Sequence record: PZ386966.1
Direction: 5' to 3' (one strand)
DNA: 64,000 nt
From: a phage
This document shows, one piece after another, positions 23,455-33,547 of the stretch. The translations under genes were made by a program, and so were the position numbers. How positions within the stretch are numbered: the first letter of the stretch is position 1; each line of letters starts with the position of its first letter. The notes below the pieces were generated by a model. That model worked only from the letters and a program-made list of their open reading frames with translations, was not told the DNA's origin and did no database searches.

Positions 23455-23462
23455 AATTTTAA

Positions 23463-23490
23463 GGCTCCTTTTTACGGGAGCCTTTTTGTT
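23463..23490. terminator. bidirectional rho-independent terminator
   Basis: Hairpin 'ggctcc ttttta cgggagcc' plus T-run, between convergent gene blocks. Confidence 0.6.
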
Positions 23491-23491
23491 T

Positions 23492-24391
23492 CTACTTGCC
23501 TACTGACAAAGGTGCTTCAATCTTTCCTGCATGTTGGTAGTTACTAATTCCACCGATAAAGTCACTTGCGGTAAGATGTTTCAGGTCACTTAAAGTATTA
23601 AGTTGTAGACCAATCTCAAAAGTTGGTGCATGGAACTCTTCATTGTTCATCAGTTCATAAACCTGCTTCATATGATTCTGATAAATCTGAGTATCCCCAA
23701 AGACACCTATCAAGTACCGTGGAGTGTATCCAGTCATCTTACAAAGAACTTCCAGAATAAAACCATAAGATGCAATATTAAACGGAAGTCCTAAAAAGGT
23801 GTCTACTGAACGCTGATACCACTGTAAGTCAACTTCACCCTCGTTAGTAATATAAATCTGAAACAGAACATGGCAAGGTGCTAGAGCCATTGAGTTTGCT
23901 GCAATATCTGCTGCATTCCAAGCATTCACAAGCATGTAACGGTCTGTGATATCACCCTTCATCTTCGTTACTAAGGTCTCTAGCTGGTCTACAACACAAC
24001 CGTTATGACCTTCAAAGTTTCTCCACTGAACTCCGTAGATTCTTCCACCTGCATCTTCTAACCAATCTTGTTCAGAAGAATAGTTAGAGCTTAACCAACG
24101 TTTAAAATCATCTGACCAGATAGTCCAGCGTTCCCCATCATTTTCATCCCAAGTGCGATAACGGAGTTCGCCAAGTTTATTCTCACCATTCAGGAACCAT
24201 AAAGCTTCCCCAATAACTTGCCGTGTAAACACCTGTTTAGATGTTAAGAGTGGGAAACCAGTACGCATATCAAAACGAAACTTAGGTGGAGCAAATGCAG
24301 AGATAACATCTCCAGTTCGTGTAGTACGCAGTTCACCGACTGATAAAACATGGTTCAGGATATTTTTGTAACTTGTATCTGCTTGTGACAT
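23492..24391 (-). CDS. thyA: thymidylate synthase
   Basis: 'ALAPCHVLFQIY' (active-site PCH), 'YQRSVDTFLGLPFNIASY', 'GDTQIYQNHM', 'YGVQWR'; Asn in 'PFNIA' indicates dUMP specificity. Confidence 0.8.
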   Translation of the reverse strand: MSQADTSYKNILNHVLSVGELRTTRTGDVISAFAPPKFRFDMRTGFPLLTSKQVFTRQVIGEALWFLNGENKLGELRYRTWDENDGERWTIWSDDFKRWLSSNYSSEQDWLEDAGGRIYGVQWRNFEGHNGCVVDQLETLVTKMKGDITDRYMLVNAWNAADIAANSMALAPCHVLFQIYITNEGEVDLQWYQRSVDTFLGLPFNIASYGFILEVLCKMTGYTPRYLIGVFGDTQIYQNHMKQVYELMNNEEFHAPTFEIGLQLNTLSDLKHLTASDFIGGISNYQHAGKIEAPLSVGK

Positions 24392-24392
24392 A

Positions 24393-24938
24393 TCAAAAGT
24401 GTCCTTTTACTTGTGGAACATAAATTTCAAAAGTTGCTTTACCATCCTCTGATGGTTTTGACTGTACCTTTGTAAATACACGGTTATCATACAGCTTCTC
24501 AAAGAAGTTTTCAAAAGGTAAATGCACAGTGACCTCTTCAGTAACTTTATGGAAAACAGTATGGAACACTACATCAGCATACGGTAAAGCATCGACAAGG
24601 ACACCTGCACCACCAATTACAAAGACATCTTCATCAATAGAGTTATCAAGATACTTCAAAAATGCTCCAAATGACTCTTTACTGGCTTTAGCATACATTA
24701 CATCATCTTTGCCAAAGTCTATGCCTAAGTATGGTACAGAATTTGTTAAGATGAGGTTTGCACGTTCTGGTAAAGGCTTACACCCCAGAGTCTTGAAAGT
24801 CTCATTACCCATCACTACTAAGTTATTTTTAGTGAGTTTCTTAAACTCTTGCATGTCCTGTTTATGTCGAGGCCACGGCATACCAGTTGGAGTACCAAAC
24901 TCCCCATTTTCACCACTTGCAAAGATTAATTTAATCAT
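24393..24938 (-). CDS. frd: dihydrofolate reductase
   Basis: 'MPWPRH', 'VVMGNETFKTLG', 'PLPERANLILT', 'VIGGAGV' match DHFR motifs; adjacent to thyA. Confidence 0.6.
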   Translation of the reverse strand: MIKLIFASGENGEFGTPTGMPWPRHKQDMQEFKKLTKNNLVVMGNETFKTLGCKPLPERANLILTNSVPYLGIDFGKDDVMYAKASKESFGAFLKYLDNSIDEDVFVIGGAGVLVDALPYADVVFHTVFHKVTEEVTVHLPFENFFEKLYDNRVFTKVQSKPSEDGKATFEIYVPQVKGHF

Positions 24939-25195
24939 TTTGTAAATCCTTTCTTAATGAACCAGTTGACGACACTCTTCACAACTTTACTACGATGGTA
25001 GATAAAATGTGGAGATGGTTGGTATGAACCATAAGCCCAGAAAGCGATAATTTCATTACACCCTGTGCATCGGGTACTTTCTTCAGCAATATGACCGTTG
25101 ACTATTTCACTTACCTCACCTTGTAAGTCTGTACACCCACAATGTGGACATCGGATAGGTGTTCCATCAGACTCATAGCAGTGTTCAATTTTCAT
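24935..25195 (-). CDS. zinc-ribbon protein
   Basis: 'CPHCGC...CTGCNE' four-Cys arrangement. Confidence 0.4.
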   Translation of the reverse strand: MKIEHCYESDGTPIRCPHCGCTDLQGEVSEIVNGHIAEESTRCTGCNEIIAFWAYGSYQPSPHFIYHRSKVVKSVVNWFIKKGFTK

Positions 25196-25711
25196 TTATT
25201 TAACCTCAAAAACTGGCTCAAGAGCCAATATAAAGTCTACACAGTCATCTTCTTCATCCAGAATACCATCAAAGTTCTTAGGAACGAAGTCGAAGAGGCT
25301 CATAACAAAACAGTCAGAAGTGACCCTGATAGTCCCTCCAATGTTCTCTACAGTCAACACTGTACGACTTTCTTTTACCTCCCTCAGAAGATTACTCACA
25401 AAGTCATCTAAGAAGTACTTCATCAGTGACTTAAAACCTTTAGGGTAATCTGTACCAGAGTATGTTTCAATCTGAGGTACAAGCTTAACATTTATACTAG
25501 TCTTTGTTAAGAATGCACTAGAGAACATACTATCAGGTAGCTTACAAACAGTCTTTCCAGTACCTTCATGTTCAATCTCAACAAAACCAGCTTCGTCGCC
25601 ACATGTGACTATTTTAAAAGATGCTTCATTCTCATGCTGCGAAGCCATAAACTTTTTGAGCATCACTTTAAGGAAATCTGCATGAGCATCTTGTAAGAAG
25701 ATATCAATCAT
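25196..25711 (-). CDS. hypothetical early protein (acidic)
   Basis: 171 aa ORF in leftward operon; no motif. Confidence 0.4.
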   Translation of the reverse strand: MIDIFLQDAHADFLKVMLKKFMASQHENEASFKIVTCGDEAGFVEIEHEGTGKTVCKLPDSMFSSAFLTKTSINVKLVPQIETYSGTDYPKGFKSLMKYFLDDFVSNLLREVKESRTVLTVENIGGTIRVTSDCFVMSLFDFVPKNFDGILDEEDDCVDFILALEPVFEVK

Positions 25712-25724
25712 AGTTAATCACCTA

Positions 25725-26084
25725 TTATGGGAACAGACACTTAATGTCATCGTTTTTGAAAACGAAACTTGTGTAGTTATGACCATCAACATCCAGCCAA
25801 ACAGCCTGAACATCTACACCATCAAGATTTTGGTAAAGCTCTTTGATGAAGTGGTCTTTTACAATCTGACTGCTAGTTGTTTCCAACTTAATGTTAGAGA
25901 TTGCTGAACCTACAGCCATATAGCCCATGACACGTTTCTTCTCAGTATGCTTAATCTTACCATCTTTGTAAGCCATAATGAGATTGGAAAGAATCTTTAC
26001 ACCATAATACTTCTCAAGGTGAGTAGGTACACCATAAAAGCCTAATGCAAAGTTTTCAGAGTGGATAATGTTTTCACGTTTCAT
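25725..26084 (-). CDS. hypothetical early protein
   Basis: 119 aa ORF; no motif. Confidence 0.4.
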   Translation of the reverse strand: MKRENIIHSENFALGFYGVPTHLEKYYGVKILSNLIMAYKDGKIKHTEKKRVMGYMAVGSAISNIKLETTSSQIVKDHFIKELYQNLDGVDVQAVWLDVDGHNYTSFVFKNDDIKCLFP

Positions 26085-26085
26085 A

Positions 26086-26415
26086 TTAATCTGCCAACCT
26101 TAAATTGAAATTAACACCAAATTTTTCACATACTTCCAACATATACTCAAGGGAGACGTTACCAGTGAGGTGGATTATGTTGGATACACGAGCCTGAGAG
26201 ATACCACAAATTTTAGCAACTTGCTCTTGAGAAAGACCTCTGGATTTAATCTCTCTCTTAAAACGATGTGCAACGAAGTCTCTCATTTCGTCTACATCCA
26301 TTGGACAAATATAACTCTCCATTTCAGCCTCTCTATCAGCCTCCCAATCATCTTGTGGGGCATAAGGGTCAAAGACCTCATTCATCTTTCTTCTTCCGTT
26401 TGCGTGAAGTGTCAA
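26086..26415 (-). CDS. Xre-family helix-turn-helix protein
   Basis: 'LSQEQVAKICGISQARVSNIIHLTGNVSLEYM' is a classic HTH_XRE pattern; acidic N-terminus. Confidence 0.5.
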   Translation of the reverse strand: MTLHANGRRKMNEVFDPYAPQDDWEADREAEMESYICPMDVDEMRDFVAHRFKREIKSRGLSQEQVAKICGISQARVSNIIHLTGNVSLEYMLEVCEKFGVNFNLRLAD

Positions 26416-26590
26416 TCAATGAATCTATGTTTGTAGCCCTAACCTTTTCACGTTCATCGTTAAGATAATCATCAAGAGCCTTTTCAATCTGTGAATCATC
26501 TTGACAGATAACTGTAAAGATTGTAAAGCCGTCTGTATCATCAATTATCTTACCATAACCGCTTCTGGGATGTAACTTTTTAAGAGCCAT
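26378..26590 (-). CDS. hypothetical protein
   Basis: 70 aa ORF overlapping the start of the HTH gene; weak. Confidence 0.25.
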   Translation of the reverse strand: MALKKLHPRSGYGKIIDDTDGFTIFTVICQDDSQIEKALDDYLNDEREKVRATNIDSLIDTSRKRKKKDE

Positions 26591-26591
26591 A

Positions 26592-26975
26592 TCAAATACC
26601 TGTGCAACTTCTGTTTTCTAAGAAATACTCAACACCATACATAGCTTTTTGCATCAAATCTTCTTTAAACTGGATACGGTGGTTGAGCATAGCCTGTACA
26701 TCAATATCATCACGGTGTTTCTCTTTAATATTTGCAGATTGCAGGAAATACTCTGCAAGAACGTGATACTGATAGTCAGTTACCTTATCAGTCATCTCTG
26801 TCAAAGATTCTTCAGAGATTGGTTTAAGTAGCTCACCATTAGCTAGAGCAACACCTTTTACAATCTGGCAAGTGTCTTCTGGAACACCTGATAAGTCCAC
26901 ATTTGGGAGTTCTGTTGCATTGACTGGTAAATTCATTGCCATAACCATTGCAGCAGCTAATAAAATCTTTTTCAT
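26592..26975 (-). CDS. secreted/periplasmic protein
   Basis: N-terminal signal peptide 'MKKILLAAAMVMAMNLPVNA'. Confidence 0.45.
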   Translation of the reverse strand: MKKILLAAAMVMAMNLPVNATELPNVDLSGVPEDTCQIVKGVALANGELLKPISEESLTEMTDKVTDYQYHVLAEYFLQSANIKEKHRDDIDVQAMLNHRIQFKEDLMQKAMYGVEYFLENRSCTGI

Positions 26976-27259
26976 AATGACCTCAAAGTTATATTGAATT
27001 TTGTATCACATTGAGTATAAAAATAAGCTATAACACCTGACTTGTCAACAGACTTTATAGCTTATTTGGCAGATTTTTTATAAGGCTACTACCATCCTTC
27101 CATACCAGACTACACCATGCCAGACCAGACTTCACATCACCTTACCGTGCAATACATCACTTGAAAACCCTCTTAGAAGACTCTTAAGTGATGTTGGTGA
27201 GTACCCGTTGGTTTATGCTGCTCAGTATACTCACCAAATTTTCTATGTCAACAACTTTA

Positions 27260-27403
27260 TATAAAAGTCCTGATAACTATATGCGTTACAAAACAGAAGA
27301 TTGTGAACAAGACACCCATTGCAAAGGATGTGTTCAAAAGCTTACTTGCAACGTATGACAATACAAAGACAACCAGTATAAATAGAATGACTGTACTGAA
27401 CAT
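27260..27403 (-). CDS. small two-helix membrane protein (not in ORF track, 47 aa)
   Basis: ATG at 27403 directly after ligase stop; translation 'MFSTVILFILVVFVLSYVASKLLNTSFAMGVLFTIFCFVTHIVIRTFI' is strongly hydrophobic. Confidence 0.3.
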
Positions 27404-27406
27404 AGT

Positions 27407-28543
27407 TTACTCATAATCCCTAATAACTAGCCCTACAGGAAACTGTAAAGAACCTTTACGAGTCATCTTCTGGAACTGAACAGTTAAAGGTTTCCCGATA
27501 AACTCTTCAGGATGTTCAGCAAGATACTGTTTCTTCTCGTGTGTAGTTTTCCATGAAACATCTACAAAGACGTTAGGAAGAGTCTCTACAACGAACTTAC
27601 CATGACCACGCTTATCGGTCTTTACACCAGTCACTTTAAACTCTTCAGTGTGCATCTTCTTGTGCTTAATCAAGAAGTATGAACGGTGACAACACTCATA
27701 GAAGGAGTCTTCAGAGATTGAACGGTACATTGCACCTTCAAACTTAACTTCAACCCACTTATCATGAGCTTCATCAAACTCTTCCCAAGAATTTACACGA
27801 CGAGACTTAACAGGGACAACTTTACAGCCGTCTCTAAAGTCATTCAATGGTGAAGTCTCAATAATATCTCTACGCTCAGGCCACGGCTTAGTGCTGTCAC
27901 AGATATCGTACCAGTAGAACTGGAGTAGATGTCGGTCTGGATTGTCTTCATTTTTAATCATGGAGACAATATCTTCTAAGTCCCACCCATGAGCATAAAT
28001 CTCTCCATCAAATTCATCAACGTCTTTATGGAGCCTCAACATAGTCATAATGTCAGGTGTTAGCTCAGTAGGTATTTTATAAACAGTATTCTCACGAGAA
28101 TAAGCCGTGAAACTAACTGAATCATCACCTCTTGAAATTCTACAACGTACACCATCAAGTTTTGGTTGAGCATCAGCAGGGAACTTCAGATACTTTGCAT
28201 GACTAACCTTTGCAGCATCATGAGCAAGCTGTACACCTACCTTCTCAGTACTCTGTGCAGACTCTTTTGTGTAAGCATAACCTTTACGGTCAACTTGCTT
28301 TTTATACTTAGCAGCAACTTCAAAGAGAGCTTGCTGTTCAGCGTTACGCTCATTCTTTTTACCGATGTTTTTAGGTTCTGCTGTGTACTCTTCAAACATC
28401 ATCTTGCCATTTTCTTTACCGTAGGTTGTAATAACTTTGTCACCTACAGCCACACATGACCAGACATTGAAAGAGCCATCTTTATTTTGTTTGTATAGAA
28501 TTGTCATTTTATTCCTCTGAGTGATACCAAGTATTGCAAGCAT
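27407..28543 (-). CDS. ATP-dependent DNA ligase
   Basis: Adenylation motif I 'KLDGVRC' (KxDGxR); size 378 aa typical of T7/T4-type ligases. Confidence 0.6.
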   Translation of the reverse strand: MLAILGITQRNKMTILYKQNKDGSFNVWSCVAVGDKVITTYGKENGKMMFEEYTAEPKNIGKKNERNAEQQALFEVAAKYKKQVDRKGYAYTKESAQSTEKVGVQLAHDAAKVSHAKYLKFPADAQPKLDGVRCRISRGDDSVSFTAYSRENTVYKIPTELTPDIMTMLRLHKDVDEFDGEIYAHGWDLEDIVSMIKNEDNPDRHLLQFYWYDICDSTKPWPERRDIIETSPLNDFRDGCKVVPVKSRRVNSWEEFDEAHDKWVEVKFEGAMYRSISEDSFYECCHRSYFLIKHKKMHTEEFKVTGVKTDKRGHGKFVVETLPNVFVDVSWKTTHEKKQYLAEHPEEFIGKPLTVQFQKMTRKGSLQFPVGLVIRDYE

Positions 28544-28700
28544 TACATGCGTAAAGCTCTAAGTCATTTTTATCAGGTTTATGAAAGCAGTTTGCTCCGC
28601 AGTGGCAACGAAACGGCTTTCCACCAACTGTCAGGGTGAAGGATTGAACCTTTCCATCAGGAGTTCGTACAGCATTTTTATGCTTATCTTCTTTGTTCAT
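28509..28700 (-). CDS. small zinc-binding protein
   Basis: 'CHCG...C...CNAC' Cys/His cluster. Confidence 0.35.
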   Translation of the reverse strand: MNKEDKHKNAVRTPDGKVQSFTLTVGGKPFRCHCGANCFHKPDKNDLELYACNACNTWYHSEE

Positions 28701-33324: not shown

Positions 33325-33350
33325 TACTGCAAAAAATTATAAAAAGCAAG

Positions 33351-33380
33351 TTGACAATGTACTTGACAAGGTGTTAATCT
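33351..33380 (+). promoter_or_regulatory. promoter candidate in divergent control region
   Basis: Two 'ttgaca' copies (33351, 33363) with a weak -10 'ttaatc' 17 bp downstream of the first. Confidence 0.3.
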
Positions 33381-33462
33381 TTGCGAAGTGGGTTTTTACT
33401 TAAAAGGTTACTTAACAGTTTAACTATACAGACACTTTAAAACTCTTAAAAGATTATTTAAT

Positions 33463-33503
33463 AGCTTTTAAAAAGCTTTAAAGTATAACGTATAGAATAC
33501 GTT
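33463..33503. promoter_or_regulatory. two palindromic operator-like sites
   Basis: 'agctttt a aaaagct' (33463-33477) and 'aacgtat aga atacgtt' (33487-33503) in the AT-rich gap between divergent operons. Confidence 0.4.
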
Positions 33504-33547
33504 AAGATAAAAGATTAAAACTTAATAGTTACTTAAAAGAGGCTTAC

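Follow-up and report, generated by a model that had tools for sequence, protein, structure and literature searches.

A predicted operon of small accessory genes, including the orthologue of a reported DRT7 trigger, in a Felixounavirus phage

What do six small genes, packed between a DNA ligase gene and a dihydrofolate reductase (DHFR) gene, do for a virulent phage? The question is raised by a 64,000-nucleotide stretch of phage DNA (sequence record PZ386966.1; hereafter the window), in which six co-directional open reading frames (ORFs) of 86, 171, 119, 99, 70 and 127 amino acids (aa) occupy positions 24935-26975 of the minus strand. A first-pass annotation, made from the sequence alone, had described them as an early cluster of orphan proteins kept for host takeover or anti-defence, and had picked out a zinc ribbon, an Xre-type helix-turn-helix (HTH) protein and a secreted protein among them. 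The six ORFs lie where that annotation had placed them and its three protein calls hold, and the timing and the orphan status that it had assumed do not. In our view, the best explanation of the locus (probability roughly 0.6) is that it forms the proximal part of an eight-gene operon of enterobacterial Ounavirinae, coding for six small accessory proteins that act on the host. These would be accessory factors rather than housekeeping or structural proteins.

Comparison of positions 24393-28543 with GenBank phage records places the window in Felixounavirus, as a virulent myovirus of the Felix O1/wV8 type. This interval matches 260 GenBank phage records, with at least 80% of the query covered in 201 of them, mostly at 90-96% identity. 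The matching records are almost all Felixounavirus or other Ounavirinae, with Escherichia, Salmonella, Shigella and Citrobacter as hosts. Translated searches (tblastn) with the first and third cluster proteins likewise returned around 260 phage records, in which all good matches are of the Ounavirinae type and come from phages of the same four host genera. The locus is already known: hundreds of genomes carry an annotation of it, and three functional studies have dealt with parts of it.

Read leftwards from the ATP-dependent ligase gene (27407-28543), which flanks the cluster upstream, the first gene encodes a putatively exported protein (sec127; 26592-26975, minus strand) corresponding to Felix O1 ORF87, bas63_0037, SUSP1 gp037 and phrog_4332. 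It is followed, on the same strand, by p70 (26378-26590; ORF86, bas63_0036, phrog_4473), the HTH protein HTH99 (26086-26385; ORF85, Bas63-035, SUSP1 gp035, phrog_1373), p119 (25725-26084; ORF84, bas63_0034, phrog_4116), p171 (25196-25711; ORF83, bas63_0033, phrog_4422) and the zinc-ribbon protein Zn86 (24935-25195; ORF82, bas63_0032, phrog_2993). The start of HTH99 is the ATG used by all annotated relatives; the mechanical ORF list runs on to a TTG at 26415. Each of the six proteins falls into one PHROG family, and the function is unknown in all but the HTH family. Two genes of recognised function follow distally on the minus strand, namely frd, encoding DHFR (24393-24938; Pfam DHFR_1, 8e-23), and td, encoding thymidylate synthase (23492-24391).

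The junctions between these eight genes, from sec127 to td, measure +1, -8, +1, +13, 0, -4 and +1 nt. With every junction in the range of -8 to +13 nt, co-transcription of the eight genes and translational coupling of some of them are probable. Upstream, two sigma-70-type promoters were predicted on the minus strand: P1 (27251-27224; AAAGTTGTTGACA-N16-TATACT, that is TTGACA-16-TATACT), which agrees with the consensus at 11 of 12 positions, and P2 (27048-27020; TTGACA-17-TATTTT). P1 directly precedes the first cluster gene in relatives that lack an adjacent cassette (see below). The next minus-strand terminator found downstream of P1 and P2 is a bidirectional intrinsic hairpin behind td (23461-23484), identical in sequence to the Felix O1 terminators t79/t80, which would end the leftward operon. 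The tight junctions, the promoters upstream and the terminator behind td together mark the cluster as the predicted proximal part of an eight-gene operon in the order sec127, p70, HTH99, p119, p171, Zn86, frd and td.

A cross-genus comparison was based on 30 loci recovered by an IMG/VR pattern scan with the HTH alignment. The order of the eight genes was the same in 30/30 of these loci and in SUSP1, and the six-gene order is kept in approximately 260 GenBank phages. Between genera, the protein identity ranges from 31-35% for sec127 and 32-41% for p171, through 54-65% for p70 and 59-66% for Zn86, to 62-71% for p119 and 64-79% for HTH99; the corresponding values are 58-69% for DHFR, 78-81% for ThyA and 85-94% for the ligase. 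Within the genus, the ratio of nonsynonymous to synonymous substitution rates (dN/dS) is 0.019 for p119, 0.043 for HTH99, 0.063 for sec127, 0.115 for p70, 0.116 for Zn86 and 0.153 for p171. Since the order is kept in relatives and the within-genus dN/dS values are 0.019-0.153, all six are maintained protein-coding genes under purifying selection and not chance ORFs. They are conserved across a phage subfamily, so the label of orphans does not suit them.

The six genes have direct orthologues, identically ordered and in an equivalent operon context, in Felix O1 (ORFs 82-87), in Bas63 (JohannRWettstein; genes 32-37, bas63_0032-0037) and in SUSP1 (within gp031-037). HTH99 and p119 are 100% identical to their Bas63 counterparts, p70 98.6%, p171 97.1%, sec127 95.3% and Zn86 82.6%. 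Published expression, knockdown, knockout and DRT7-escape data for these phages therefore apply to the window. Unlike SUSP1, the window lacks the two-gene cassette (SUSP1 gp039/gp038) between ligase and cluster, and it lacks an ORF like SUSP1 gp033. The latter lies in a gap of approximately 500 nt between p119 and p171 that is found in the loci outside Felixounavirus (L027-L033); in SUSP1 (L003, 25776-26276) this gap holds the 166-aa gp033 (phrog_9143), which has no Pfam match.

Expression and knockdown data from these relatives bear on the timing and the importance of the cluster. In Felix O1, reverse transcription polymerase chain reaction (RT-PCR) detected transcripts of ORFs 83, 84 and 87 with a maximum at 25 min ('middle'), against a maximum at 10 min for ORF81 (DHFR); ORFs 85 and 86 were outside the assay. 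The literature places expression of the cluster genes ahead of the late genes. Thus, 'delayed-early to middle' fits the expression better than the 'early' of the first-pass annotation, and immediate-early timing is not borne out. In SUSP1, a transcriptome-wide knockdown by CRISPRi-ART scored all seven genes from gp031 to gp037 as 'Not Fit' (PMC11879866). Each gene is thus reported as individually dispensable in laboratory Escherichia coli, and the cluster constitutes a conserved, non-structural accessory operon. The evidence fits the general proposal of a cluster directed at the host, which is partly supported; none of the six ORFs has been shown to inhibit a defence system. Two members are experimentally linked to host defence, HTH99 as a trigger and Zn86 through a host-dependent fitness effect.

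The link is most direct for HTH99, which is identical to Bas63-035 in 99/99 residues. Loss-of-function mutants of Bas63-035 (start-codon and frameshift) are viable and escape abortive infection by DRT7 (preprint 10.64898/2026.04.18.719102). DRT7 and Bas63-035 are lethal to cells when expressed together but not singly, and purified Bas63-035 alone did not stimulate DNA synthesis by DRT7 in vitro (preprint 10.64898/2026.04.18.719102). In SUSP1, knockdown of the HTH gene gave a fitness value of 0.37 (p 0.20), scored as 'Not Fit' (PMC11879866). Given the complete identity to Bas63-035, HTH99 is therefore expressed, dispensable in the laboratory host and a sensed trigger of DRT7. This sole defence link of HTH99 runs opposite to anti-defence. 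Furthermore, the suggestion that the HTH protein might regulate the early programme does not extend to an essential regulator, given that the phage tolerates its loss. DRT7 may sense either the activity of HTH99 or the protein itself.

The Xre-type assignment of HTH99 appears secure from its profile matches. Pfam HTH_3 was matched at 6e-10 and 39.4 bits (gathering cut-off 23) and HTH_37 at 27.9 bits (cut-off 27), and both domains were found in 12/12 full-length homologues, which identifies a genuine Xre/HTH_3 protein at the level of sequence. The AlphaFold2 model has a core of four helices at residues 31-90 with a predicted local distance difference test score (pLDDT) of 86-91, preceded by an N-terminus with one short helix and a pLDDT of approximately 55. 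Foldseek searches of the PDB with this model returned only generic small Xre proteins, with template modelling (TM) scores of 0.6-0.75 on the target and none at E <1e-3. These neighbours were 2a6c, HipB, C.BclI, C.AhdI, C.Esp1396I, DdrO, SinR, HigA2 and CapH, and the Foldseek probability was 1.00 for 2a6c, HipB, the C proteins and SinR. A PDB profile search matched Mycobacterium tuberculosis HigA2. In BFVD, the fold search ranked the Moogle orthologue first, followed by phage HTH proteins of a generic kind. The presence of an Xre protein in an apparently lytic phage had been regarded as notable; BFVD holds many such proteins and it is not unusual. Some of the Xre proteins in BFVD belong to phages known to be virulent. 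No relatives of HTH99 were found in a scan of 185,579 bacterial and archaeal species genomes.

The strongest conservation in HTH99 falls on the first 25 residues and not on the HTH domain. F5-D6-P7-Y8-A9-P10, D12, E15, E21 and M22 are invariant, forming a peptide FDPYAP.D..E that is shared across genera, and residues 1-30 carry ten acidic side chains against a single basic one. Across genera, the recognition helix (ISQxRVSNI) does not vary either. As the N-terminal peptide is conserved yet not confidently folded, we infer that it is probably a docking motif for a cellular or phage partner. In its small size, five-helix Xre fold and position within an operon of small genes, HTH99 resembles the controller (C) proteins of restriction-modification systems, the Aca proteins and the HipB/HigA antitoxins. 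However, these families have nothing that corresponds to the invariant acidic peptide of some 30 residues, no gene for a cognate toxin, a restriction enzyme or an anti-CRISPR protein neighbours HTH99, and no conserved operator was found. HTH99 would be a small Xre-type DNA-binding protein, probably dimeric. Most likely it either restrains this strongly promoted operon, in the way of Aca and C proteins, or diverts a host factor.

HTH99 could be a mere autorepressor of the Aca or C-protein type, which would bind an operator at the promoter or shortly after it and shut the operon off after a burst, with the other five genes as unrelated cargo and the sensing by DRT7 a matter of chance. The HTH gene does lie within a strongly promoted operon of small genes, its recognition helix is invariant, C.AhdI, C.BclI and C.Esp1396I are among its structural neighbours, PADLOC 'control protein' models match it at 5e-5, and non-essentiality is expected for an autorepressor of accessory genes. 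In addition, a perfect 13-nt inverted repeat (27021-27067, minus strand; AAATAAGCTATAA / TTATAGCTTATTT) frames the -35 and -10 boxes of P2, and an AT-rich quasi-palindrome in the sec127 5' untranslated region (UTR) is common to both promoter types. P1 carries a repeat of its own, a perfect 10-nt pair (27194-27237, minus strand; TTGGTGAGTA / TACTCACCAA) that encloses the -10 box.

The P2 repeat occurs in one copy in each of 28 loci and is absent from three others (L027, L030 and L032) that keep the same recognition helix. The P1 arms differ between phages although the recognition helix is constant, and yet remain complementary in three other loci (AACATAGCAAGT/ACTTGCTATGTT, CCTGACGGGT/ACCCGTCAGG and CTTAGTGGGT/ACCCACTAG); the RNA fold of 27130-27240, around this repeat, has a z-score of -3.2. 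Because the P1 arms covary and the P2 repeat is missing from loci with the same helix, both repeats look like structural stem-loops rather than protein operators, as far as sequence comparison can tell.

Stem-loops of this kind are known from T4-type phages as promoter early stem-loops (PeSL), in which a strong sigma-70-like promoter overlaps a stem-loop and cassettes are gained or lost by recombination between elements (PMC2839356). The cluster boundary resembles PeSL cassettes (PMC2839356, PMC4122927) in its strong promoters, its overlapping stem-loops at P1, with covarying arms, and at P2, and a cassette that is present or absent between the two promoters. P1 and P2 are homologous promoter units, for which the loci L027, L030, L032 and L004 (3460-5410) were considered besides 27020-27251 of the window, and many relatives carry two genes between them (200 and 146 aa, equivalent to SUSP1 gp039 and gp038), whereas only the ends of this cassette remain in the window. 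Its presence differs between relatives such as L030 and L031, and gp038 was scored 'Semi-Fit' in SUSP1 (PMC11879866). A second, imperfect hairpin (27154-27194, minus strand), annotated as a terminator in phage ASO1A, lies at the left edge of the cassette site. The apparent cassette junction falls at the -10 box (TATACT), and PeSL crossovers have been mapped nearby, between the -10 box and the ATG. The block of approximately 100 nt with P2 is nearly identical across genera, whereas the adjoining sec127 is only 31-35% identical. In contrast to the T4-type elements, these belong to an Ounavirinae phage and their stems are AT-rich or mixed instead of GGGG/CCCC. A strict PeSL pattern scan of the 64-kb window recovered P1 only (P2 was recognised by eye), so the elements are local and not genome-wide in the window.

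Just upstream of the conserved P2 block, at 27095-27150 (minus strand), lies a tract rich in G and T that repeats roughly every 6 nt (GGTNNG-like units) and is variable, its length and sequence being different in every relative. A recombination scar, a protein-binding array or G-quadruplex potential are possible readings of this tract.

Two candidate sites for HTH99 remain on sequence grounds: the quasi-palindrome in the sec127 5' UTR and a perfect 8+3+8 palindrome at 33486-33504 (TAACGTAT-AGA-ATACGTTA), which contains a TAGAAT hexamer resembling a -10 box and whose core is conserved in SUSP1. The first-pass annotation had suggested palindromes near 33463-33503 as targets of the HTH protein; palindromes do exist there (33455-33504), the core of one being shared with SUSP1, but nothing links them to HTH99. 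The palindrome ACGTAT-N3-ATACGT is single-copy in the window, and a MotA-box-like motif (AAAGCTTTAAAG) was set aside because its matches, 32 in the window against 15 expected, are scattered. The surrounding region (33340-33510) is intergenic and separates the DNA polymerase gene from the divergently oriented first rightward gene. It is highly conserved with SUSP1, and holds two overlapping TTGACA boxes (33350-33375) and AAGCTTT-centred palindromes (33455-33485).

In its gene content the operon differs from an Aca-type arrangement: the five neighbours of HTH99 had no significant match in Pfam, NCBIfam, PADLOC or the PHROGs function categories that would mark a known anti-defence gene, although no dedicated anti-defence database was searched. 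Autorepression as the whole role of HTH99 would leave its N-terminal peptide, the most conserved part of the protein, unexplained; PeSL-type stem-loops are the better explanation of the repeats, and the toxicity with DRT7 arises in uninfected cells, which contain no phage operator. Taken together, we consider it possible but unlikely that HTH99 is an autorepressor and nothing more.

A type II antitoxin-like role, orphan or paired, is a further alternative, which we regard as decidedly doubtful. Here the disordered, acidic N-terminus would fold around and neutralise a toxin (that of a host abortive-infection system, or p70 or p119), and the HTH domain would dimerise and bind an operator as in HigA2 and HipB. 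The architecture fits, with an invariant N-terminal peptide modelled at low confidence followed by an Xre domain within some 100 aa. The HTH gene is tightly coupled to both neighbours (-8 and +1 nt), p119 and HTH99 are the two most constrained proteins of the cluster, HigA2 was found in the PDB profile search and HipB and HigA2 are among the Foldseek neighbours. Weak matches were also obtained to hidden Markov models (HMMs) of Y4mF/HipB-coupled proteins (4.8e-5), PezA (1e-4) and HigA (3.4e-4). However, the HMM scores are all far below the curated cut-offs (HigA TIGR02607, 20.4 against 47.7 bits; Y4mF, 23.2 against 71.65; HipB, 14.6 against 79), and Foldseek places restriction-modification controllers and plain repressors equally high. 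Neither p70 nor p119 matches a toxin family in Pfam, NCBIfam, PADLOC or the PDB, the 185,579 species genomes hold no bacterial homologue with the N-terminal motif, and the phage tolerates the loss of HTH99. The earlier idea of antitoxin mimicry amounts to sub-threshold HMM similarity, and a toxin-antitoxin reading was set aside as no neighbour resembles a toxin, although a neighbour might still be a toxin of a novel kind.

It is also conceivable, although we would not give it high odds, that HTH99 is a host-directed effector. The disordered N-terminal peptide would capture a host protein, perhaps a transcription factor, a toxin or part of a defence system. The Xre domain would dimerise or tether HTH99 to DNA, and DRT7 would act as a guard that notices the disturbance. 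p70 and p119 would then serve as co-factors, and the operon as a whole would be a counter-defence island of Ounavirinae with several unrecognised inhibitor families. Such an arrangement would explain why the purified protein alone fails to activate DRT7 in vitro.

The second link to host defence comes from Zn86, for which a zinc ribbon had been called. Its cysteines C16/C19 and C43/C46 are invariant in 25/25 distinct sequences, as expected of a four-cysteine ribbon, and its stop codon overlaps the DHFR start by 4 nt. The NCBIfam model ECs_2282_CxxC matches 7/8 members of the family (best 4.6e-6), and the Lar model (TIGR03655) matches 5/8 at E <=0.01 (best 0.0022). Like Lar of the Rac prophage and ECs_2282, Zn86 is a small phage-encoded CxxC...CxxC ribbon, and residues 13-50 align with both models. 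Unlike them, it has an additional conserved C-terminal half (FWAYGSY.P.P...NWFI.KGF). Zn86 is thus weakly Lar-like: it resembles Lar by sequence but cannot be filed as a member. In the PhageMaP study, gene 32 of Bas63 ('Lar-like') was less essential in DH10B than in BW25113, MG1655 and S17-1, and the authors suggest there that it helps to evade Type IV restriction (PMC11482910). This gene is the Zn86 orthologue, taking the PhageMaP gene numbers to follow the locus tags. Zn86 would be a Lar-like zinc ribbon that may ease restriction.

The ribbon core is not confined to the subfamily. It was found in approximately 100 virulent phages outside Ounavirinae, including RB49-like and other T4-type phages, Cronobacter phage GAP227, Klebsiella phages and Pseudomonas phage phiPMW. 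At the 5/5 loci inspected (L035-L039), the homologues lie amid small hypothetical ORFs and are not linked to frd or td. In RB49 (L035, 2968-3297; RB49p188), the ribbon gene comes immediately after a DNA methyltransferase gene near alt, the stop codon of one touching the start codon of the other. This linkage fits a restriction-related role, as a single case.

The first gene of the operon may act at the envelope. The signal peptide of sec127, read directly from the sequence, comprises MKK, a hydrophobic core and a VNA|TE cleavage site (MKKILLAAAMVMAMNLPVNA|TE in full), and orthologues have ASA, AYA or AAA before the cleavage point. The site is not followed by a cysteine, and a lipobox is absent. 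The n-h-c layout and the A-x-A site are kept in all genera though the sequence differs, so the call of a signal-peptide protein is upheld at this level. The predicted mature protein is acidic (107 aa, isoelectric point 4.6), with C36 and C124 invariant; sec127 is thus predicted to be exported to the periplasm and probably oxidised there to a disulfide-bonded protein. It matches nothing in Pfam, NCBIfam or PADLOC, and a homologue search returned four sequences only, all of at least 92% identity, too few for structure prediction.

As noted above, sec127 is only 31-35% identical across genera, compared with 54-79% for p70, Zn86, p119 and HTH99. Divergence is fast between genera and selection within the genus is purifying, a combination that suggests a variable partner, at the envelope or phage-borne, with which sec127 co-evolves. 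An envelope-level role such as superinfection exclusion or lysis timing may be proposed by analogy, with low confidence. T4 encodes two periplasmic early proteins, Spackle, which acts in superinfection exclusion, and RI, an antiholin. Like these, sec127 is a small, periplasm-targeted protein of a virulent myovirus that is made before the late genes, and its two cysteines would allow a disulfide. However, it has no sequence similarity to either, and the analogy is one of location only.

For the remaining three proteins, p70, p119 and p171, no homologue was found outside the subfamily, no fold prediction was obtained and no activity can be assigned. The C-terminal half of p70 is invariant (VRAT.IDSLIDTSRKR.KKDE) and ends in a basic tail, and in every relative its stop codon overlaps the HTH gene start by 8 nt. 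Of the six proteins, p119 is under the strongest constraint (dN/dS 0.019), with an invariant GSAISNIKLETT and a conserved FKNxDIKCLFP C-terminus; no relatives were found in the scan of 185,579 bacterial and archaeal species genomes. Its AlphaFold2 model, built on a 10-sequence alignment, was unusable (mean pLDDT 45.9). The acidic p171 is restricted to Ounavirinae and diverges fast. It is disrupted in two relatives, by a frameshift in an apparently SUSP-like locus (L028, 7166-7656) and by an early stop in a Moogle-like one (L031, 7151-7657), and is thus being lost in some lineages. A HMMER search of 1.84 billion representative sequences for p171 returned three full-length Ounavirinae-like relatives and short fragments; a 3108-aa eukaryote-like repeat protein that also appeared was dismissed as a spurious match. 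PDB profile searches with sec127, p171, p119, p70 and Zn86 gave a best E of 0.018, and every match was to an unrelated protein.

The linkage of the cluster to nucleotide metabolism raises a last alternative, that the small ORFs are auxiliary subunits or regulators of the phage thymidylate and DNA-precursor machinery, and hence housekeeping rather than host-directed. T4 also has small ORFs, frd.1-3, beside frd. All relatives strictly keep the small ORFs in one operon with frd and td, the stop codon of Zn86 overlaps the frd start and T4 frd.2 was scored Fit (PMC11879866), but with one member predicted to be exported to the periplasm, another a DNA-binding HTH protein, Zn86 homologues elsewhere unlinked to frd and td, no match of any of the six to a nucleotide-metabolism family and all six 'Not Fit' in SUSP1 (though frd and td are too), this role is very improbable.

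Several points weigh against an accessory operon acting on the host. None of the six proteins has a demonstrated activity in anti-defence or host takeover, and the DRT7 and PhageMaP results are preprints. CRISPRi-ART has false negatives, and ligase, td and frd are also 'Not Fit', so that the assay is conservative and dispensability is conditional on it (PMC11879866). Only location and evolutionary rate speak for the proposed roles of sec127, and its PDB profile search gave just five weak, unrelated matches (best E 0.23). For HTH99 no operator could be defined; the window holds no recurrent palindrome (6-7-nt half-sites, at least three occurrences), and the 13-nt repeat at P2 is missing from relatives with an identical recognition helix. 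Zn86 scores below the curated cut-offs of both models (Lar, 18.3 against 39.6 bits; ECs_2282, 20.6 against 37), and Bas63 is remarkably sensitive to several restriction-modification systems according to the BASEL paper, which argues against a broad anti-restriction role for this protein.

Some neighbouring features were recorded in passing. A 48-aa hydrophobic ORF (27257-27403, minus strand; phrog_22006, equivalent to bas63_0038) lies between ligase and P1, and tblastn finds it in only some relatives. A 63-aa cysteine-rich ORF (28509-28700, minus strand) overlaps the ligase start and is 74% identical to bas63_0040. The latter corresponds to PhageMaP 'gene 40' only if the PhageMaP numbers follow the locus tags; in that study, gene 40 is reported as a trigger of the hhe defence system and as more dispensable under several defences (PMC11482910). 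Two 'DNA ligase' features are annotated in several relatives (e.g., tootiki, skuden and ekra), and in some the interval contains an additional 1.5-2 kb; in some genomes, the ligase region may be split or a mobile element may have inserted there. No tRNAs or Rfam matches were found anywhere in the window.

An accessory region of this kind is unsurprising in a large virulent phage. The operon nevertheless offers a compact and experimentally tractable set of accessory genes in phages that are used for typing and biocontrol of Salmonella and E. coli. The five genes other than HTH99 are dispensable and under purifying selection, and two of them are fast-evolving, which makes them reasonable candidates for counter-defence and superinfection-exclusion screens. 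The remaining interest lies in four proteins without a recognisable fold or function and in the role of HTH99 for the phage. HTH99 (Bas63-035) is the only named trigger of DRT7 so far; its role for the phage would show what DRT7 monitors, and the invariant N-terminal peptide is the obvious starting place.

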